Source of the DNA: a virus
Lineage: Duplodnaviria > Caudoviricetes
Virus record (IMG/VR): IMGVR_UViG_2974778117_000001
Coordinates: 64,001-128,000 of that record
Length of the DNA: 64,000 bases
Strand: one strand, 5' to 3'
A program made the position numbers and the translations under genes. Shown here piece after piece: positions 7,583-58,482 of this stretch. How positions within the stretch are numbered: position 1 is the stretch's first letter; the number at the start of each line of letters is the position of its first letter. The notes below the pieces were generated by a model. It was not told where the DNA came from, did no database searches, and saw only the letters and a list, made by a program, of their open reading frames with translations.

Positions 7583-10500
7583 ATGTCTAAGCTAGACTTC
7601 TCAGGAGCGCCATACACTGACGACTTCGATCCGCTGAAGGGGTTCCAGAAGGTTCTCTTCCGTCCGGGTCGAGCGGTTCAGGCGCGTGAGCTCAACCAAA
7701 TCCAGAGCATGTTCGGCAATCAACTGTCGAGCCTAGCTAACCACATCTTCAAGAACGGATCCAAGGTCAGCAACGGTCGCACCGCTCTGGCAGCGAAGTC
7801 GTATGTTCGCCTGCTGAACGATCCGGTTGTGTCGACTTACCCAGCTGGCACTCGCCTTGTCGGTGCAACCTCCGGCATCCAGGCGACTCTGGTCGTTGGT
7901 GTTGACCCGGAGAACGGTGATCCCTCAACCCTGTACGTGGTCTACACCTCGTCGGCAATTGACGGCACTACTTCGACGTTCATTCCGGGCGAGAAGATCA
8001 ACATCCTGGACGAGAACGGTTTCACCGTTGACGAGGTTGAAGTTCGCTGCCCGACTTGCCCAGGTTCCGGTCTGAGCGACACTATCGCTCCGGTTGGTCG
8101 TGGTCAGATGTTCTCGATTGACGAGGGTATCTTCTACTTCGAGGGGATGTTCATTGAGACTCCACCTCAGCAGATTATCGTCACCAAGTATCTGACGTAT
8201 GACACTGACGGCAACATCACCAACTTCGTCCCTTGCAAGATCGGCTTGGACTTCATCCAGTCCATCGTGACCTACAACGAGGACTCATCGCTGCTTGACC
8301 CGGCACTCGGCTATCCCAATAGCACGGCTCCGGGTGCTGACCGTTACAGGACTGAACTGCGACTGGTCAAGCGTGAGTACAATGTCGAGGACGGCGAGAA
8401 CTTCATTCCGCTGGCACGCCTGGGCGAAGGTCTGCGCATCGAGTTCATGAAGATGGACAGCGACTACGCTGACATCATGGACACCATCGCCAAGCGTACC
8501 TACGAGACCAATGGCGACTACACCATCCGTCCGTTCCGCGTCAGCTTCCTGAACAGCAAGAAGAAGACCGCATCTGACCCGCTGGGTTGGAGCGTGAATG
8601 GCAACGACGATGACCTCATCGCTGTCGTGACTCCTTCCGTGGCTTATGTCAAGGGCTATCGTGTCGAGACCATGGCTGACACTCCGGTGGCGTTCCGCAA
8701 GGCACGCGACACCAAGAAGATGGACAGCTTTGTCAAGCACTTCGATGGACGCACCTACATTCTCGGTAAGCCGGCAAGCAACGTGAGCTGGCCCAACCTG
8801 GCGACCGATTCCGGTACGATGGGTGGAACAGTCGTGACCCTGTACGATGGCGTGGCTACCTCGGGTGGCATCGCTGGTCAGGCAATCGGTACGTTCCGAG
8901 TCACCGATATGCAGTATGTGTCGGGCGATGTGGCTGCGAACACCGCGATCTTCAAGTATTACATCTACGATCTGAAACTGCTTCCAGGCTTCAAGCTGTC
9001 GCAGGCTCAGGGCTATGCTGTTTCCAACACTGGCTTCTACACGAACGTTGTCAAGGACGCGACCACCAACCAGGTCGAGATCTACAACAACAACCGTCAG
9101 GCCTTGATCTATCGTCTGGATCGCAACGACGTGAAGAGCCTTCGCTCTATCGCGGACGCGAACAACGGTTCCATCAATGTCGTGGTCCGCCGCAAGCTGA
9201 CTGGTGTTGCTGACGGTTCCGGTTCGGTGACCTTCACGACTTCGAGCAACGAATACTTCGACAACGCTGGTCCGTCGCTGGTCGGCTGGTACACTGCGAG
9301 CGGTACAACCCGGTCGTTCAACGCTTCGGCTGCAGCAAGCCTCAACCCGACAAGCCTGACTCTGAACATCGGTTCGGCTGCAGCGGGTGCATCGGTCACG
9401 GTCATCGCAGACATCCTGCGCACCAACCAGACCGAGAAGCAGAAGCTCCTAACCAAGCTGACGATCAACACTGTGATCGCTCCGGGCGAGAACATCGGCG
9501 ACAAGGTGATGCTGGGTAAGGCAGACGCGTTCCGCCTGAACAGCGTCAAGGTGTTCGTTGACGGTACTCCGACCGATCCAGTTGCCGACGTGACTTCTGA
9601 GTATGAAATCCATACCGGTATCACCGACACTGCTTATGGCGAATCCTGGATCCAGCGAGTCAAGGCTCCGGCATCGCCTATCAGCCCGACAATGCGTCTG
9701 GCTATCAGCTTCGACTACTACGAGCACAGCGGCAATCAGGGCTACTTCACTATTGACTCCTACGCTGCGGCGCTGAATGCTCCAGACAGTGATGTCACCT
9801 ATGATAGCCTGCCGACCTACGTGTCGATGGCTGGCGATTCATACCCGGTGGCAAGCTCTATCGACTTCCGCCCAGTCGTGATTGGTTCTGATCCGGTGAG
9901 CGTGTTGCTTCCGGCAAACGACTCGACCATGACATTTGACATCGAGTATTACCTGAGCCGTGCTGATCTGCTACAGATCAACAAGGATGGCGTGATCTAT
10001 GTCAAGGAAGGTGAGCCGAGCGAAACTCCGCGCATCCCGAAGACTGATGACAATGCAATGGCGCTGTATCAGATCTGGTTGACGCCATACACCTACAGCC
10101 TGAAGGACATCAGCACCAAGTTCATCGAGAACCGCCGCTACACAATGCGTGACATCGGCGCTATCGAGAATCGCTTGACAAACGTGGAGACCATCGTGTC
10201 TCTGAACCTGCTGGAGAAGTCGGCAGCCGATATGAGCATCAAGGACAGCAATGGTCTTGACCGCTACAAGAACGGATTCATCGCTGACAACTTCCAGGAC
10301 TTCCAGGCGGCTGATCTCCAGAGCAAGGAATGGCGTGCAGGTACAGACCGCACCCAGCGTCAGCTACGTCCGAGCTTCAAGGCATCGAACAAGAAGCTGA
10401 AATTCAACCTGGCGAAGTCGATTGGCGTTGCACTCCGCGGTAACGTGGCAACTCTGCCGTTCGACAATGTCATGTACATTGAACAGCCGTACGCTACCAA

Positions 10501-52728: not shown

Positions 52729-53967
52729 ATGGCAGCACCAACCTACTTGCCTGAGGCGATTGCTACCGCGATTGGCTGGGCACATCCGATCACAGGCGAA
52801 CAGCTGGACGTCACCAAGGGTCTTCCTGGCGCGATCAGCTACTACAAGCCGAATGCTCGCGGACAGTCTTTCATCGATCCAGCTGGCAGTGTCACAAGCC
52901 TGATCAACTTCATCAAGAAGGGTCCGCGTAAGGTCATCTTCACGATCCAAGCGAAGAAGGCGATCAAGAAAGTCGTGACCACATTCGGTGACGCGTCCGA
53001 TCCGCTGACATCTGGAGCAACATTCCTTCACGTGTATCCGGATGATCCCGCAACCAAGACCTACTCTCTGTCTTCTGTTGTGACCTACAGCGACGACACT
53101 ACAGAGACTGTCACGCTGGAAGTTCAGATCCTGGCAGGCGAAGTTGCCGCGCCGGCAAATACCGCAGTACCAACTATCACAGGTACAGCACGAGTGGGGC
53201 AGGTTCTGACGGCTGGTGATGGTACCTGGACGGGCAATCCTGCTCCGACCTTCACATACGCTTGGTTCCGTGGGACCACAGCAATCTCTGGAGCCACCAG
53301 CAAGACCTACACTCTGGTTGCAGCTGATGCCGGCTCGACCGTGAAGGTTCGCGTGACTGGAACCAATTCCGAAGGCACAGCCAATGCCGAATCGGCTCCG
53401 ACTGCAAGCGTGACGCAAGCTCCAGCTAACACCGCTGTTCCGACAGTGACTGGTACGGCTCGCGTTGGTCAGACATTGACCGCCGCTCCGGGAACATGGA
53501 CTGGCACACCAACTCCGACTTACACCTACCAGTGGCAGCGTGGCACAACCAACATCAGTGGTGCGACAAGCTCGACTTATGTTCTGGTTGCAGCTGACGC
53601 AGGGCAGACAGTTCGCGTGGTTGTGACCGGCACCAACTCGGCAGGCAACGCTTCGGCGAACAGCGCCAACACGGCTTCGGTGACTCAGACTCCAGCTAAC
53701 ACCGCTCTACCGACCATCACCGGAACGGCTCAAGAAGGACAGGTTCTGACCTCGACCAACGGAACATGGACTGGCACACCAACACCGACCTACACACGTC
53801 AGTGGAAGGCAGGCGGAGTTGATATCGCTGGTGCGACGGCTCAGACCTACACTCCAGTGGCAGGCGACGTTGGCAAGACCATCACCGTTGCAGTCACAGG
53901 CACCAACAGCGCGGGTAATGCAACCGCAACGTCGGCAGCCACAGCAGCGGTTGTCGCGGCGGCATAA
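52729..53967 (+). CDS. Virion decoration protein with three Ig-like repeats (Hoc-like)
   Basis: Late promoter at 52691; 3 x 90-aa PANTA.PT.TGTA..GQ.LT...GTWTG.P.PT.T..W repeats with a 270-bp period (53221, 53491, 53761). Confidence 0.75.
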   Translation: MAAPTYLPEAIATAIGWAHPITGEQLDVTKGLPGAISYYKPNARGQSFIDPAGSVTSLINFIKKGPRKVIFTIQAKKAIKKVVTTFGDASDPLTSGATFLHVYPDDPATKTYSLSSVVTYSDDTTETVTLEVQILAGEVAAPANTAVPTITGTARVGQVLTAGDGTWTGNPAPTFTYAWFRGTTAISGATSKTYTLVAADAGSTVKVRVTGTNSEGTANAESAPTASVTQAPANTAVPTVTGTARVGQTLTAAPGTWTGTPTPTYTYQWQRGTTNISGATSSTYVLVAADAGQTVRVVVTGTNSAGNASANSANTASVTQTPANTALPTITGTAQEGQVLTSTNGTWTGTPTPTYTRQWKAGGVDIAGATAQTYTPVAGDVGKTITVAVTGTNSAGNATATSAATAAVVAAA

Positions 53968-53982
53968 TCTTGAAACACTTTC

Positions 53983-54009
53983 GGGCCCAGGTAGATCCTG
54001 GGCCCTTCT
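53983..54009 (+). terminator. Terminator hairpin overlapping a promoter
   Basis: GGGCCCAGG-loop-CCTGGGCCC followed by TTCT. Confidence 0.6.
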
Positions 54010-54049
54010 GTCTATATCATACCAGGATACCAAATGATGGAGATCTGTT

Positions 54050-54970
54050 ATGGGTGGTAATGTAGTGATCAATGGAATGTCCGCTCGCCGCATTGAAGTC
54101 GAGACTCTTGAGCAGCTGGTGGACCTGAATCATGAAGTCGCAATCTTGATGCATCGGTTGCAAATGGAACCGGGCTCTTACTTCCCGACTGGCAGCTACC
54201 GTGCAATGCTCGAGAATTTCAGCCGAGTCCATCATTCCAAGCCGACGCTGGGTGACGTGGACATTGCAGTACACAAGGATTCCAAGGGACACATCATGTC
54301 GATGCTGCCGAAGCTGGAAGCGATTGATGCAATCGCGGGGTGGAAGGTCTCAGGATCGAACATCATCGTCCTGACCAACACCGGAGAGCAGATCGATCTG
54401 GAACTGACCGATGGTAGCGCATGGTCGCTATGGATCCGACAGTCAGACATTGCCGATCTGGATTGCGGCATCAAGGGATTCGCCAACATCTTCCTCTTCC
54501 GAGCTCTGACCTCGCTGACTGTCAAGGACTTTCCGGGTCTTGGTGAGATGAACGAGTATGCGTTCAGCCTGAATGGACTCCGCCGCAAGGTCGAGATGAA
54601 TGGCGCTGTCGCGGAGGTAATCCCATCATCCAAGGTCAAGCCGAACGACTACATCACCGATCCGGGTACGATCCTCCAGATCCTGTTGGCAGATCGTTGC
54701 TTCCAGCCGGTCTCCAAGATCATCCCGAGCGATGTGTGGGAAGTGTCCAGTTCGTTTGTGAAGCTGTGGGCGTTCGTGTGTAGCTGGATCAAGTCGAAGA
54801 GTGATCTGGATAAGATCAGCAATGCCCTGTATGACCTGCTGTATAGCGACAAAGCACAAAGCCTGTATCGGGATGATCCCGAACGAGATGCACAAGAGAA
54901 GGACGCAATATGGAAAGAGTTCCAGCGCACCCTCATGATGAACAAGGCGTCCGTCGCCTATGAAGATTGA
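54050..54970 (+). CDS. Pol-beta superfamily nucleotidyltransferase
   Basis: MGGNV N-terminus, TGS ... GDVDIAV, third acidic residue in QIDL. Confidence 0.75.
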   Translation: MGGNVVINGMSARRIEVETLEQLVDLNHEVAILMHRLQMEPGSYFPTGSYRAMLENFSRVHHSKPTLGDVDIAVHKDSKGHIMSMLPKLEAIDAIAGWKVSGSNIIVLTNTGEQIDLELTDGSAWSLWIRQSDIADLDCGIKGFANIFLFRALTSLTVKDFPGLGEMNEYAFSLNGLRRKVEMNGAVAEVIPSSKVKPNDYITDPGTILQILLADRCFQPVSKIIPSDVWEVSSSFVKLWAFVCSWIKSKSDLDKISNALYDLLYSDKAQSLYRDDPERDAQEKDAIWKEFQRTLMMNKASVAYED

Positions 54971-55902
54971 GGATCTAGACGCGATCCTCCGAGACAGAAG
55001 TTCCGTACCAAGAGAGTCAGCGCAAAGCGATTGGTTGTCTACACGAGCGGGTCACGGCAAGAGCTGATGGCCCAGCTCGGCAATGAGTTCGGCGGAGTCT
55101 TCTGTCCGAACCCTGATTCATACTCGACAGCCGGGTCAACAGACTATGGTTTCTTCAAACTGTATGCGAAGCCCGACAAAGGCGCGGGCGCGAAGGCGGC
55201 TGGAATCGACAATGAAGATCTCCTTGTCAAGGCCTTGAATAGATACACGACTGATTACAAGAAGGTGACGGTCACGTTTGAGGCGCTCAATATGAAGATC
55301 AATGTCGCCGATGTCAAGTTCGCTCGGCACTCCGGTGCAGACACGAAGGGACGCAAGAAGGCTGACGTTGTGCTCGAGACTTCATCCGGTGAGGTGCCGA
55401 TCTCGGTCAAGAAGGATAAGGCGGAGATGTGGGAGTCGGCTGATTCCTACTGGTCGGCGAACACAGGCATGGTCATCAATCACCTGCTGAAGAAGGGTGA
55501 GATCACCATGGAGCCGAACAAGAACGTCTACAAGATCAAGCCGAGCGTTGCCATCGAGGCAACATCAGAGGAGAAGCGTGACGTTGTGTTTGGATCGGAC
55601 CTTCTCGGCAAAGGGTTCGTAGCTCAGAAGTCATATAGTGAATCAGACTTTTCCTTTAACTTGAAGGCAAAAGAGCTTAAAATCAATTGTACGCACTTGA
55701 TCCAGTCTGAGGAGGACGTTCACGGCGACCACGATGTGTGGTTCCTGATTCGCCCGGACGCGACAAGGAGATCTGTGAAAGAGTGGCCAGGTGTTCGCAC
55801 GCTGGCGGTTTATCAAACCCGACTGACCTCTGGCGTCAGGCGATATGAGAGGAGTGTGTTCAATGGATGCAAGTCCAAGAGTGGGAATCAAAACGTAGCT
55901 GA
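54960..55902 (+). CDS. PD-(D/E)XK nuclease-fold protein (apparent deletions near 54996 and 55893)
   Basis: G..NE helix, KADVVL ... ISVKK; fused to the next gene in the ORF track by an apparent indel. Confidence 0.5.
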
Positions 55903-56668
55903 TCTGGGGCAGACGAGGTATGAAAGCCTGTTTGTCCCTAGGAACGCGGACAACACCAAGTTCCAGTTCCGCTACATGAACGCCAAGATCAAGGTTGATG
56001 GTATCCCTTTGCGGTTTGGATTTGACGCGTCGGCTACCCCGTTCGTGGAAACCAGCCGCAGCGGATTGATCTATCACCCCTCGTCGTTCGTTCTGCATGC
56101 GAAGAATAAGCCGGATTCCAATCCACGCAAGCCGTGGATGGTCGCAACCGCATACAAGTATCAGGATCTGGCTACACGGATTCTCAATCTGCTGCACGCC
56201 GTTCCGTTGCACAAGCGATACCGGAACCTGAAGGTCCACGCCGAGTGCTTGCCGCGATGCTTCCAGGATGCAAATGGTCGGATCGTTACCTTGTCTTACA
56301 CTCTGCCAGAAGGTGCTGAACTGGTCATGTACCCGTATCAGGTGGAAGGCTCCCTTCGCGCTCCGATGGTGGTAGCTGAGGAGATTCTCCTGCGATCAAC
56401 GTCGTTCCCATACGCTGATAGGCAGAGGCATAGGAAGGAGATCTTGATTGAGAATGATGCAATCACGTTGCCACTGATCGAGTCGGAGACTCAGCCTTAC
56501 CCATCTGAACTGGCACACGATATCCTTTCCGGAGTGAATGTGTATACACCTTACGGTCCAATTGAAGGTGTCATCATCCCTACAGAATACGGCGACGCGA
56601 AGGTTCAGAGTCAGATCTATAAGGAAGAGCGCGCTAAGCTGAAGATCAAGCTGGTGGTGGAAGAATGA
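55863..56668 (+). CDS. Ligase-like covalent nucleotidyltransferase (KxDG)
   Basis: Own GAGGAG RBS and ATG at 55863; KVDG (motif I), HAE (III), EGVII (IV), AKV (V). Confidence 0.55.
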
Positions 56669-57164
56669 ACATCCTCTTCCCGGGACGATTCCAACCGATC
56701 CACAAGGGTCATATCCACACCTTCAATGAGCTCAGCAAGAAGGGCAAAGTCCATATCGCTGTGATCCGTGGCGCCGTGACATCCCGGAACCTCAAGCTGA
56801 ATCCCTTCAGCGAGGATCAACAGCTTGATCTGATTCAGGACGCGTTGCCTGATGTGGAACCGATCATCTTTGCGAACGGCTATCTTCCGGACATTCTGGA
56901 ATGGTATAAGAGCCACGGAATCAAGATTGACGCCATCGCCTGTGGGTCGGATCGGATAAATACCTACGCAGCCCAGCTTGCACGCGGTGGCGTAAGTGAC
57001 GTGGTGATCTATCCGGTAAAGCGTCTCGGGTCGCGACAGAAGTTCGCCGTCACCTGGCGGAAGACAATCGGTTGTTGTTCCAAGCGTCTATGCCCGAATC
57101 GCTTCATGGCTGGTACAAAATCTTGAAGAGAACGGTGGACGAATCAGATGGCAACATTGAATGA
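56665..57164 (+). CDS. HxGH cytidylyltransferase/NMNAT-like nucleotidyltransferase (apparent deletion near 57033)
   Basis: PGRFQPIHKGH, NPFS, GSDR, corrected SATEVR. Confidence 0.85.
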
Positions 57165-57336
57165 AGAAGAGGGTGGCGGTGGAGAAGGCGGCTCGACCTC
57201 CAACAGCACCACACAGATCGCAAAGCCTGAAAAGCCCATGAAGGGCGACAAGATGATGCGTCGACAAGACCGCACGAAACTGGAAGAGTGGACTCTAGAA
57301 ATGATGGTCCGTCAGGTCAAAGGAACGCTTTCGTGA
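57148..57336 (+). CDS. Small hypothetical protein, possibly virion-associated
   Basis: MATLNEE N-terminus resembles a gp21-type LxE cleavage site; downstream of TAAATA at 56957. Confidence 0.5.
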   Translation: MATLNEEEGGGGEGGSTSNSTTQIAKPEKPMKGDKMMRRQDRTKLEEWTLEMMVRQVKGTLS

Positions 57337-57734
57337 TCATCCCAAATGAAGGACAGGGCCTGAACAAGAAGCGACATCTGATGCCGCAGATTTCCGACTA
57401 CAATGCCTTCATCGCCGATCTCGAGTCGGAGGGTGTTGACGTGACCACGGTCATGATCAAAGCCTCCCGTCTCACTCCGACCCAGTCCAACTTCAACGAG
57501 GACAAGGTCAACCGGATGATCGAGGATGAAAGCTGGAAGCGCGGAGCCATCGTGTCGTCAAAGGACGATTGCGTTCTGGACGGTCATCACAGATGGCTGG
57601 CGGCTGCACAGGATGATTCCTCAATCCGTACCCGTCGAATCGGGATGAACATTGAGGATCTGCTCGCGTTCGTCAAGGACAAGAGCTATGTTGAATACAA
57701 GAAGATCAATGAGGCTAGACAATGGGCAAACTGA
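57333..57734 (+). CDS. ParB/sulfiredoxin-like domain protein
   Basis: L.PTQ..F...KV ... I.S.D..VLDGHHRWLAA. Confidence 0.75.
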   Translation: MIIPNEGQGLNKKRHLMPQISDYNAFIADLESEGVDVTTVMIKASRLTPTQSNFNEDKVNRMIEDESWKRGAIVSSKDDCVLDGHHRWLAAAQDDSSIRTRRIGMNIEDLLAFVKDKSYVEYKKINEARQWAN

Positions 57735-58482
57735 GAAAGCCGACAGGCATCACCTTTGAGCTGGAACTGACCGAGCTTGGCAAGACCGTCAAGTATCGTC
57801 CGTTCAAGCTGAAGGAACAGAAGAAGCTGCTGCTTGCATCCGGCTTGAAAGACAAAGCCGTGATGACCAATGCCCTGCTTGACATCGTGGAACAATGTAC
57901 GTTCGGTGAACTGAATGTTCGCAAGCTGCCGATGCACATCACGGACTATCTGTTCACCAAGATCTACATCAAGTCGGTCGGTAACATGAGTCAAGCACAG
58001 TTTGAATGTGCGGGCGAAGTCATCGAGAAGGATGATGAAGGACATGATCATAAGGTTCCGTGCGGCGTCAAGCTGAACCTGAACCTTGATCTGGAACGTG
58101 CGACTCTCGTCTATCCGGACACTTACCGCCCGAACGAGACGATTGAGCTGGAAGATGGGATGTTCGTCCGCCTCCGAGTTCCGACGTTTGAAGAACAACA
58201 GAAGATCGACTTCTCCAAGTCACTGACTGACGTCACCGACCAGTTCATCGTGTCGCTGATCGAAGCCATCGTGGATGGAGAAGAAATGCAGATTCCGGGT
58301 CAGGACGTCACCCCAGACGAGGTGGTGGAATGGCTGGACGAACTGTCTGCATCCTCAATCGAGAAGATCACAGGCTTCCTGCAGAATCTCCCCCAGTTGA
58401 CGATGGACGTCAACGTGACCTGCCCCAAATGTGGTAGGAAGGAGGAGTTCAAGCTCACGGGCCTTGAGGATTTTTCGGCTGA
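57722..58482 (+). CDS. Baseplate hub assembly protein gp26 (apparent deletion near 58475)
   Basis: VKYRPF..KE.K.LL, KSVG, CPKCG....LTGLEDFF. Confidence 0.88.

Follow-up and report, generated by a model that had tools for sequence, protein, structure and literature searches.

The coupling of a nucleotide adder to a ligase is a logic found in the polymerase X (PolX) and ligase of African swine fever virus (ASFV), and in LigD. RlaP, a Pol-beta nucleotidyltransferase encoded beside RNA ligases, adds 1-2 nucleotides to damaged RNA 3' ends before ligation and has been proposed to counter base-removing ribotoxins (PMC12776372, PMC7824862). The locus described here lies in a virus of the Caudoviricetes, in a stretch of 64,000 nucleotides (the window; positions 64,001 to 128,000 of IMG/VR record IMGVR_UViG_2974778117_000001). 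Window positions 54000-58000 are 94-99% identical to 14 records of T4-like Menderavirus phages of Stenotrophomonas maltophilia (Ps15, YB07, BUCT608, Mendera, Moby, Marzo and others); the virus is itself an IME-SM1-like Menderavirus. An operon at 54050-57734 encodes three predicted nucleotide-transfer enzymes (A, C and D), a candidate nuclease (B), a small protein (E) and a probable ParB/Srx-like protein (F). A, C and D, probably with B, are best read as a fill-and-seal polynucleotide repair kit whose substrate is most likely RNA, for instance tRNA that host ribotoxins have cut and nibbled; we put the probability of this reading at roughly 0.42. Its four genes are the following, in window coordinates.

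Gene A, 54050..54970, + strand: 306 amino acids, intact; predicted Pol-beta-superfamily nucleotidyltransferase, minimal polymerase X-like.
Gene B, 54960..55902, + strand: 314 amino acids in relatives, frameshifted in the window after 54997 and 55889; phage family with a D...SxK motif.
Gene C, 55863..56668, + strand: 268 amino acids in relatives; predicted covalent (lysyl-nucleoside monophosphate) nucleotidyltransferase, KVDG motif at about 55991-56002.
Gene D, 56665..57164, + strand: 166 amino acids in relatives, frameshifted in the window after 57032; predicted HxGH adenylyltransferase, HKGH motif at 56701-56712.

The predicted structure of A is that of a Pol-beta-superfamily enzyme built as a minimal polymerase X, with palm and thumb plus an extra C-terminal helical part; membership of family X is not demonstrated. 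Its homologues are merely a handful among 5.8 billion proteins. Residues G48-S49, G68-D69-x-D71 and D116-x-E118 are invariant in nine sequences, which also include N-terminal domains of larger phage proteins, and they fall on helix H48-55 and strands E70-75 and E114-120 of the AlphaFold (AF2) model (predicted local distance difference test score, pLDDT, 88; predicted template-modelling score, pTM, 0.83). GS thus opens a helix, DxD lies on the next strand and a third carboxylate on a neighbouring strand of a palm fold, as in the Pol-beta superfamily. Every one of the best Foldseek matches listed (about 50 of the 94 below an E value of 1e-3) is a DNA polymerase of family X; they include Pol lambda (E 3e-5), Thermus PolX and Pol beta. 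The VIA comparison, which is independent of Foldseek, gives its highest Z scores to RNA terminal transferases (TUT7 9.1, Trf4 8.9, GLD-2 8.8), aligned through the palm only over about 95 residues, and its longer matches are PolX enzymes: ASFV PolX (Z 7.8, 150 of 176 residues), TdT (7.7) and Pol beta (7.2). VIA places A nearer to PolX and the terminal uridylyltransferases (TUTases) than to the CD-NTases, and the LicD-family protein FKRP stands low in its list (Z 5.4). These matches and the invariant motifs confirm the Pol-beta assignment of the initial annotation, which had been made from the sequence without database searches. Compared with family X DNA polymerases, palm and thumb align, and the 306-residue model has no helix-hairpin-helix or 8-kDa region. 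No Pfam family matches A at E<=0.1, PolX and RlaP (PF10127) included, and RlaP has no match at E<=1 in the whole genome, the 159,514-bp virus record containing the window to which all whole-genome searches refer.

Gene C is confirmed, on its motifs and modelled fold, as a predicted covalent nucleotidyltransferase of the ligase/capping superfamily, closest to RNA ligases; the KxDG ligase-like adenylyltransferase proposed initially is therefore upheld. Two close relatives are found by word-index search and 14 homologues by exhaustive phmmer. Motifs I, III, IV and V (K35-x-D37-G38, E119, E226-G227 and K238) are invariant in 13-16 sequences. The AF2 model (pLDDT 90) has no OB domain. Foldseek matches it to T4 Rnl1 (E 2e-4), while VIA ranks NgrRnl, the Naegleria Rnl5 ligase, highest (Z 9.6 over 180 residues), followed by T4 Rnl2, Trl1 and the marine DNA ligase Pmar-Lig (6rce) (7.8), REL1 (7.5), and other DNA ligases and capping enzymes at about 6; AsfvLIG is among the matches of both. 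The first 44 VIA rows and the Foldseek matches all belong to the ligase/capping superfamily, and structural neighbours in BFVD are mostly annotated viral RNA ligases, with cyanophage proteins among them. Gene C has no Pfam match, the genome gives no hit to RNA_ligase (PF09414), and the likeness to the named families Rnl1, Rnl2 and Rnl5 is structural only. The same genome encodes a gp30-type DNA ligase (G000:C1:158136-158657) and, in a gene distinct from C, a T4 Rnl1-type RNA ligase matched by PF09511 (L023; G000:C1:29268-29834), which makes C a third, extra ligase.

Profile searches confirm gene D as a predicted HxGH (HIGH) adenylyltransferase resembling NadM-type nicotinamide mononucleotide (NMN) adenylyltransferase (NMNAT) and phosphopantetheine adenylyltransferase (PPAT). 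It matches Pfam PF01467 (CTP_transf_like) with an E value of 1.7e-10 (41.6 bits against a cut-off of 21), carries H-K-G-H at residues 13-16 and ends in an S-A-T-x-x-R-like motif. Its PDB match is NMNAT 2qjt (E 8.6e-5), and the family profile fits adenylyltransferases best (archaeal NMNAT 4.6e-7, PPAT 2.7e-6), not cytidylyltransferases. Of the initial reading as an HxGH cytidylyltransferase/NMNAT-like enzyme, the fold and the NMNAT likeness stand, and the family profile disfavours the cytidylyltransferase half. The alignment with NMNATs is limited to residues 4-67, which hold GRFQPxHxGH and NPF, and D has no Nudix domain. Against the TIGR01527 NMNAT equivalog it scores 28 bits where the cut-off is 181, its NCBIfam match is at domain level only, and it does not qualify as a NadM-type NMN adenylyltransferase. 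NadV and a bifunctional NatV are encoded elsewhere in Menderavirus genomes (PMC9025141, the Ps15 paper). These two observations show that D is not the phage's enzyme for nicotinamide adenine dinucleotide (NAD) salvage. An Ackermannviridae "RNA polymerase ADP-ribosylase" and gp175 of Acidovorax phage ACP17 were considered as relatives of D and rejected, as neither is a homologue.

Beyond the three folds and their catalytic motifs, the physical and genomic coupling of these enzymes is directly supported. In marine phage contigs A, C and the HxGH protein D form one polypeptide (P0129, 1104 amino acids; P0133, 1033 amino acids), whose three parts are confirmed by PHROG matches, and P0128, P0134 and P0135 (about 500-600 amino acids) are fusions of C with an HxGH domain. 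Five viral contigs carry an A-C-D fusion gene, and in one contig (L013) A adjoins a separate C-D fusion. Gp026 of Campylobacter phage CP220 and Va1_166 of Vibrio phage Va1 likewise join a KxDG ligase domain to an HxGH domain. In a set of 50,697 phage records, 37 have an A-like gene and 38 a D-like gene; the records are the same 36, save one uncultured record with D only, and the 36 shared are cultured Stenotrophomonas, Xanthomonas, Campylobacter and Vibrio phages. The fusions and this co-occurrence strongly support the idea, already put forward in the initial annotation, that three kinds of nucleotide-transfer enzyme serve one pathway. The gene order is kept in Xanthomonas phage X1, whose proteins are 25-49% identical to those of the window: A is followed there by a gene in the place of B, then by C, D, a small gene, an additional DUF5710 gene, F and gp26. 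The DUF5710-domain gene lies between the small gene E and F (L014 9452-10342). No homology to B could be demonstrated for the X1 gene in its place; a second homologue of B, and a clearer one, lies directly after UvsX in X1 (L018:3710-4675).

Gene B represents a phage-only family of about 300 residues with more than 238 homologues, none of which has a Pfam family. Invariant in 35 sequences are E86, D136, S149-x-K151 and a WESAD motif. This pattern would fit a restriction-endonuclease-like site of the MspI/HinP1I type and makes B a candidate, unproven PD-(D/E)XK nuclease. The PD-(D/E)XK label given initially is thus backed by the conserved residues and not by the fold, which profile searches of PDB and Pfam, both empty, do not confirm; a weak lead to R.HinP1I comes from Atlas, a language-model comparison (14% share). 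Of 80 viral loci selected because they carry a homologue of B, 45 contain a downstream, same-strand HxGH gene, and all nine such genes tested are independent PF01467 matches. Some of these HxGH proteins also carry DUF5824 and a Zeta-toxin/AAA_33 P-loop kinase. Large marine-phage proteins with an N-terminal HxGH domain and DUF5824 are found at L088:5855-9550, L058:5856-8456 and L089:3680-6775, the first with the Zeta-toxin/AAA_33 kinase as well. KVP40-like phages have B without A or C; KVP40.0018 and KVP40.0019 were considered as orthologues of C and D and rejected, as they show just a weak HxGH-like C-terminal similarity (E 0.006).

In the proposed repair kit, A, as a polymerase-X/terminal-transferase-like enzyme, would extend a 3'-OH end that is missing bases by one or a few nucleotides. 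C would then take AMP on its KxDG lysine and seal the 3'-OH/5'-phosphate junction. D may serve the ligation step, either by producing or renewing the adenylate donor (NAD+ built from NMN and ATP, for instance) or by adenylylating the phosphate end directly; that most lineages fuse it to the ligase suggests a part in adenylylation. Trimming of the damaged end may be the task of B, and end healing would fall to a separate T4 Pnkp-like kinase/HAD phosphatase of 280 amino acids encoded in the same genome (G000:C1 about 9137-9979; L021:1042-1884). The substrate, the order of the steps and the roles of D and B are what we infer. RNA is somewhat likelier than DNA given an RNA-ligase-type C devoid of an OB domain, the TUTase-like palm of A, the HxGH-kinase fusions in relatives and the absence of RlaP from the genome. 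A P-loop kinase is typical of end healing. RNA or tRNA end repair against host anticodon nucleases, the first of three options in the initial annotation, is accordingly the best-fitting of them and compatible with the evidence, with a DNA substrate as a serious rival.

The operon is found on the plus strand as first described, with its genes and motifs at the positions given, and every junction from A through gp26 overlaps once the frames are restored, which bears out the tight overlaps reported initially. In Mendera coordinates the overlaps are 11 nucleotides (A/B), 41 (B/C), 4 (C/D), 17 (D/E), 4 (E/F) and 13 (F/gp26). The remaining features of the operon are these.

Gene E, 57148..57336, + strand: 62 amino acids; small protein with a Gly/Glu-rich N-terminus followed by a basic stretch, overlapping D and F.
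Gene F, 57288..57734 (GTG start, as in the Ps15 record) or from 57333 (as in the Mendera record), + strand: 133-148 amino acids; probable ParB/Srx-like protein, DGHHR motif at 57579-57593.
GC-rich, terminator-like hairpin, 53984..54006, + strand: located between the Hoc-like Ig-repeat gene and the GGAG ribosome-binding site of gene A, close to the latter; the Ps15 record gives it as a terminator.

Aligned with five relatives, the window alone lacks one base at each of four sites, after 54997, 55889, 57032 and 58470, the last within the gp26 homologue. All four sites are homopolymer runs, and each deletion breaks a frame that is intact in every relative, for which reason the deletions are almost certainly sequencing errors. 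As a result B and C read as a single 545-residue open reading frame (55031-56668), D is shortened from 166 to 153 amino acids with a false C-terminus, and the gp26 homologue is misextended; the initial annotation had evidently allowed for these broken frames. PHROG 12709 (552 positions) matches the artificial B-C fusion end to end, and a 533-residue IME-SM1 protein in BFVD is 100% identical to the window's gene C region. The end-to-end match indicates that an IME-SM1-type frameshift artefact, a false fusion protein of 533-545 amino acids, has entered public resources, and annotation drawn from PHROG 12709 and BFVD now carries it. The T4 late promoter TATAAATA occurs nowhere in the window.

The operon stands within a replication block. 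Upstream the gene order is gp43, UvsX, FolE, Ino1, QueC, DpdA, QueE, gp41 helicase and a Hoc-like Ig-repeat protein; downstream lie a gp26-like baseplate hub and a 705-residue transglycosylase-bearing protein. The Ig-repeat protein (52729-53967, 412 amino acids) has three Ig-like repeats (AIR9/Hoc-like) and is variously called S8 peptidase, whisker protein or capsid decoration protein in relatives; only the Ig or decoration reading is backed by PHROG and Pfam. Gene E is conserved in Menderaviruses and has a 76-residue counterpart in position in X1, and no family match was found for it in Pfam, PHROG or NCBIfam.

Gene F probably encodes a ParB/Srx-fold protein, judging from its L-x-PTQ...DGHHR pattern, in which D98, G99, H101 and R102 are invariant. 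Weak matches to PHROG 2859, 3041, 8071 ("ParB-like", E 5.5e-4) and 498 (E 2.4e-4) agree with the ParB/Srx assignment first made from the DGHHR motif, while Pfam (ParB_N is nowhere in the genome), NCBIfam and PDB profile searches give no ParB match to back it. Homologues occur in 440 phage records, as stand-alone Ackermannviridae proteins, which some records call structural or virion-associated and one names "ParB N-terminal domain", and as N-termini of DarB-like proteins. The tie of F to genes A-D is weaker than the ties among those four. Its closest homologue outside the Xanthomonadaceae phages is ACP17 gp176 (53% identity), encoded directly after NatV, NadV and a 182-residue unknown gene (L008 3959-7582); ACP17 has DpdA and lacks A, C and D. 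A possible link between D and a ParB-methyltransferase in Rak2-like jumbo phages was dropped, as 121Q gp417 is not F-like.

A counterpart of the C-D pair is widespread in marine phages. One HxGH neighbour of the B homologues is a DUF6267-HxGH fusion, and DUF6267 carries KYDG, EGFV and K motifs, which mark it as ligase-like and as a counterpart of C; hhalign aligns motif I of the two families with a probability of 27%. A structural row (template-modelling score 0.59) suggested DUF6267 as a relative of A, and this was rejected on its KYDG...EGFV ligase motifs and the lack of a match to the A-family hidden Markov model (HMM). The pair of DUF6267 and "cytidylyltransferase" occurs in 565 phage records, mostly Synechococcus and Prochlorococcus myoviruses, and also in pelagiphage HTVC008M and Stenotrophomonas phage DLP6. 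In cyanophage S-SZBM1 it follows gp41, as in the window (L105 6390-8671, minus strand). No PF01068 or PF01653 ligase was found in the S-SZBM1 genome, in which the pair may be the only ligase system, and the A-family HMM detects no A-like gene in cyanophages. The HxGH protein of S-SZBM1, its cytidylyltransferase, has been detected in purified virions (PMC9146016). In the literature searched DUF6267 is unmentioned and the cyanophage cytidylyltransferase has no assigned function.

Packaging may differ between these lineages. The A-type proteins of L009-L013, L016 (CP220 gp100), P0129 and P0133 begin with leaders of 10-17 residues ending in INE, ICE, LYE, VAE, ILE, ITE or IAE. These leaders end immediately before a conserved GGN, a pattern that resembles the cleavage sites of T4 gp21, the prohead protease. 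In Menderavirus, X1, Va1 and four metagenomic relatives, M-GGN is the exact start of A, and D opens with its first beta strand. The absence of a leader suggests that the Menderavirus enzymes are probably not packaged via the T4-type leader route.

Several points weigh against an RNA repair kit. The activities assigned to A, B, C and D are predicted ones. The need for a further ligase is unexplained beside the T4-type Rnl1, Pnkp and gp30 DNA ligase. To our knowledge no ligase needs an HxGH partner, so that the role of D is conjecture. B homologues are absent from the A-C-D fusion loci, and F has a much wider, independent distribution. Finally, A over its whole chain resembles DNA polymerase X more than a TUTase, and the restriction-enzyme-like motif of B and the ParB-like F suit DNA better than RNA.

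These last features, with the position in the replication block, keep a DNA version of the same logic a serious rival, which we judge possible and yet unlikely. Here A would be a minimal gap-filling polymerase X, perhaps inserting ribonucleotides, C would seal the nick as Rnl5 and LigD do on ribo-terminated nicks, B would make or trim the break and F would bind DNA, the whole serving base-excision or break repair of phage DNA. The listed Foldseek matches of A and the long alignment with ASFV PolX fit this role, as does the restriction-endonuclease resemblance of B and the occurrence of the F family as the N-terminus of DarB-like DNA-acting proteins. The module follows gp43, UvsX and gp41, and it is placed likewise in KVP40 and S-SZBM1, the latter having the ligase-like/HxGH pair and neither a PF01068 nor a PF01653 ligase. 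Deinococcus is reported to become more sensitive to radiation when its Rnl5 ligase, DraRnl, is lost (PMC5397189). However, C has neither an OB nor a DNA-binding domain, and each structural search ranks RNA ligases above DNA ligases for it; the helix-hairpin-helix and 8-kDa domains of PolX are missing from A, which has no Pfam PolX match either; and a gp30-type DNA ligase is present in the A-carrying phages as well.

A bolder proposal, for which we see rather poor odds, concerns the ligase-like/HxGH pair itself. The pair may represent a new two-enzyme ligation chemistry, in which the HxGH protein pre-adenylylates the 5'-phosphate or provides a poorly self-charging ligase with an adenylate donor of its own. 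It would then be the missing nucleic-acid ligase system of the cyanomyoviruses, where the pair is near-universal and a gp30- or LigA-type ligase is absent, and the PolX-like A would be an optional gap-filling add-on.

Counter-defence through NAD+ or signalling nucleotides, the second option of the initial annotation, is improbable. D would rebuild NAD+ as an NMN adenylyltransferase, and a nucleotide signal would be produced or removed by A and C. NadM-type signatures (GRFQPxHxGH and NPF) do occur in the first 65 residues of D, and in ACP17 the F homologue lies beside NadV and NatV. Yet Menderaviruses already encode NadV and NatV, the score of D falls far below the NMNAT equivalog cut-off, and the fusion of D to ligase and polymerase-like domains has no parallel in NAD salvage. 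Moreover, none of the operon proteins matched PADLOC defence models, and A is nearer to PolX and TUTases than to CD-NTases. It is improbable as well that the genes are mere neighbours, with B, F and possibly others acting independently and the cluster not forming one system. The presence of F alone in 440 phage records, of B in KVP40-like phages without A or C, and of a gene at B's position in X1 that is not demonstrably its homologue would agree with such independence, but the A-C-D and C-D fusions, the near-perfect co-occurrence of A and D, and the link of B to HxGH genes in 45 of the 80 loci argue against it.

The third option, in which D would make a nucleoside diphosphate-alcohol (for example CDP-inositol from the Ino1 product) that A transfers LicD-style to DNA or protein, is highly improbable: in Menderaviruses the deazaguanine genes, Ino1 and a gene resembling HAD phosphatases are found about 5-9 kb upstream, and FKRP figures low in the list for A, but the initial annotation had itself named occurrence of the cluster without ino1 as refuting this route, and X1, Va1 and CP220 carry the module with no ino1 homologue (ino1 is also missing from KVP40, which has B and an HxGH-like protein only, and from ACP17, which has F only), the family profile of D favours NMNAT and PPAT over cytidylyltransferases, and the conserved fused ligase domain is left unexplained. 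Profiling against dpdA, which had also been proposed, gives no better agreement, since the presence of DpdA does not track the module: no match to DpdA came from Va1 or CP220, and in ACP17 DpdA occurs in the absence of A, C and D. This search used the window's own DpdA-type protein, since Pfam TGT (PF01702) missed the annotated DpdA of X1, and the Va1 and CP220 negatives may reflect divergence.

The operon is part of a very large family of phage genes. The ligase-like/HxGH pair spans more than 500 cultured phage genomes, among them those of most marine cyanomyoviruses, in which it is labelled merely "hypothetical protein" and "cytidylyltransferase". Fusions of these genes with a PolX-like enzyme recur and point towards a machine for repair or end processing, which could counter host nucleases that cut and nibble tRNA or DNA. 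If the fill-and-seal reading is true, the HxGH adenylyltransferase would be a fourth enzyme type in heal-and-seal toolkits. Menderavirus is culturable and its genes are separate and leaderless, making it convenient for testing each activity singly.

The theme of this operon is known; the literature searched contains no description of its families, of the three-way fusion or of the HxGH partner. Operons of RlaP (PF10127) and an RNA ligase, including T4 NrdC.11, likewise couple a Pol-beta-fold nucleotide adder to a 5'-phosphate RNA ligase, restoring bases and then ligating (PMC12776372; PMC7824862). In contrast, A has no PF10127 match and has a PolX-like thumb, the ligase comes from a new family, and an HxGH enzyme, which RlaP systems lack, is fused or adjacent. 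The T4 Pnkp and Rnl1 tRNA repair system shares the strategy of a phage heal-and-seal answer to anticodon nucleases, yet the operon contains a nucleotide adder and neither kinase nor phosphatase, with homologues of Pnkp and Rnl1 elsewhere in the genome.

Despite these differences in architecture, each component has a recognizable counterpart. The best structural matches to C are Rnl5 (NgrRnl, DraRnl) and T4 Rnl2, with which it shares an adenylyltransferase domain that has no OB fold; there is no sequence-family match, and C has neither the N-terminal domain seen in NgrRnl nor the C-terminal one of Rnl2. D shares the HxGH fold and the GRFQPxHxGH and NPF signature with PPAT and with NadM/NatV, the latter of KVP40 NAD salvage, but only about 65 residues align and the Nudix domain is missing. 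The DUF6267/"cytidylyltransferase" pair of T4-like cyanophages, HTVC008M and others has the same ligase-like KxDG protein adjacent or fused to an HxGH transferase and the same position after gp41, whereas the profile similarity is weak and the cyanophage proteins carry a T4-like N-terminal leader that the Menderavirus proteins lack. ASFV Pol X and the ASFV DNA ligase, which act in base-excision repair, also pair a minimal palm-plus-thumb polymerase X with a viral ligase. C differs from the ASFV enzyme in lacking OB and DNA-binding domains and in standing nearer to RNA ligases, the operon has no apurinic/apyrimidinic endonuclease, and its HxGH partner is an addition with no ASFV counterpart.

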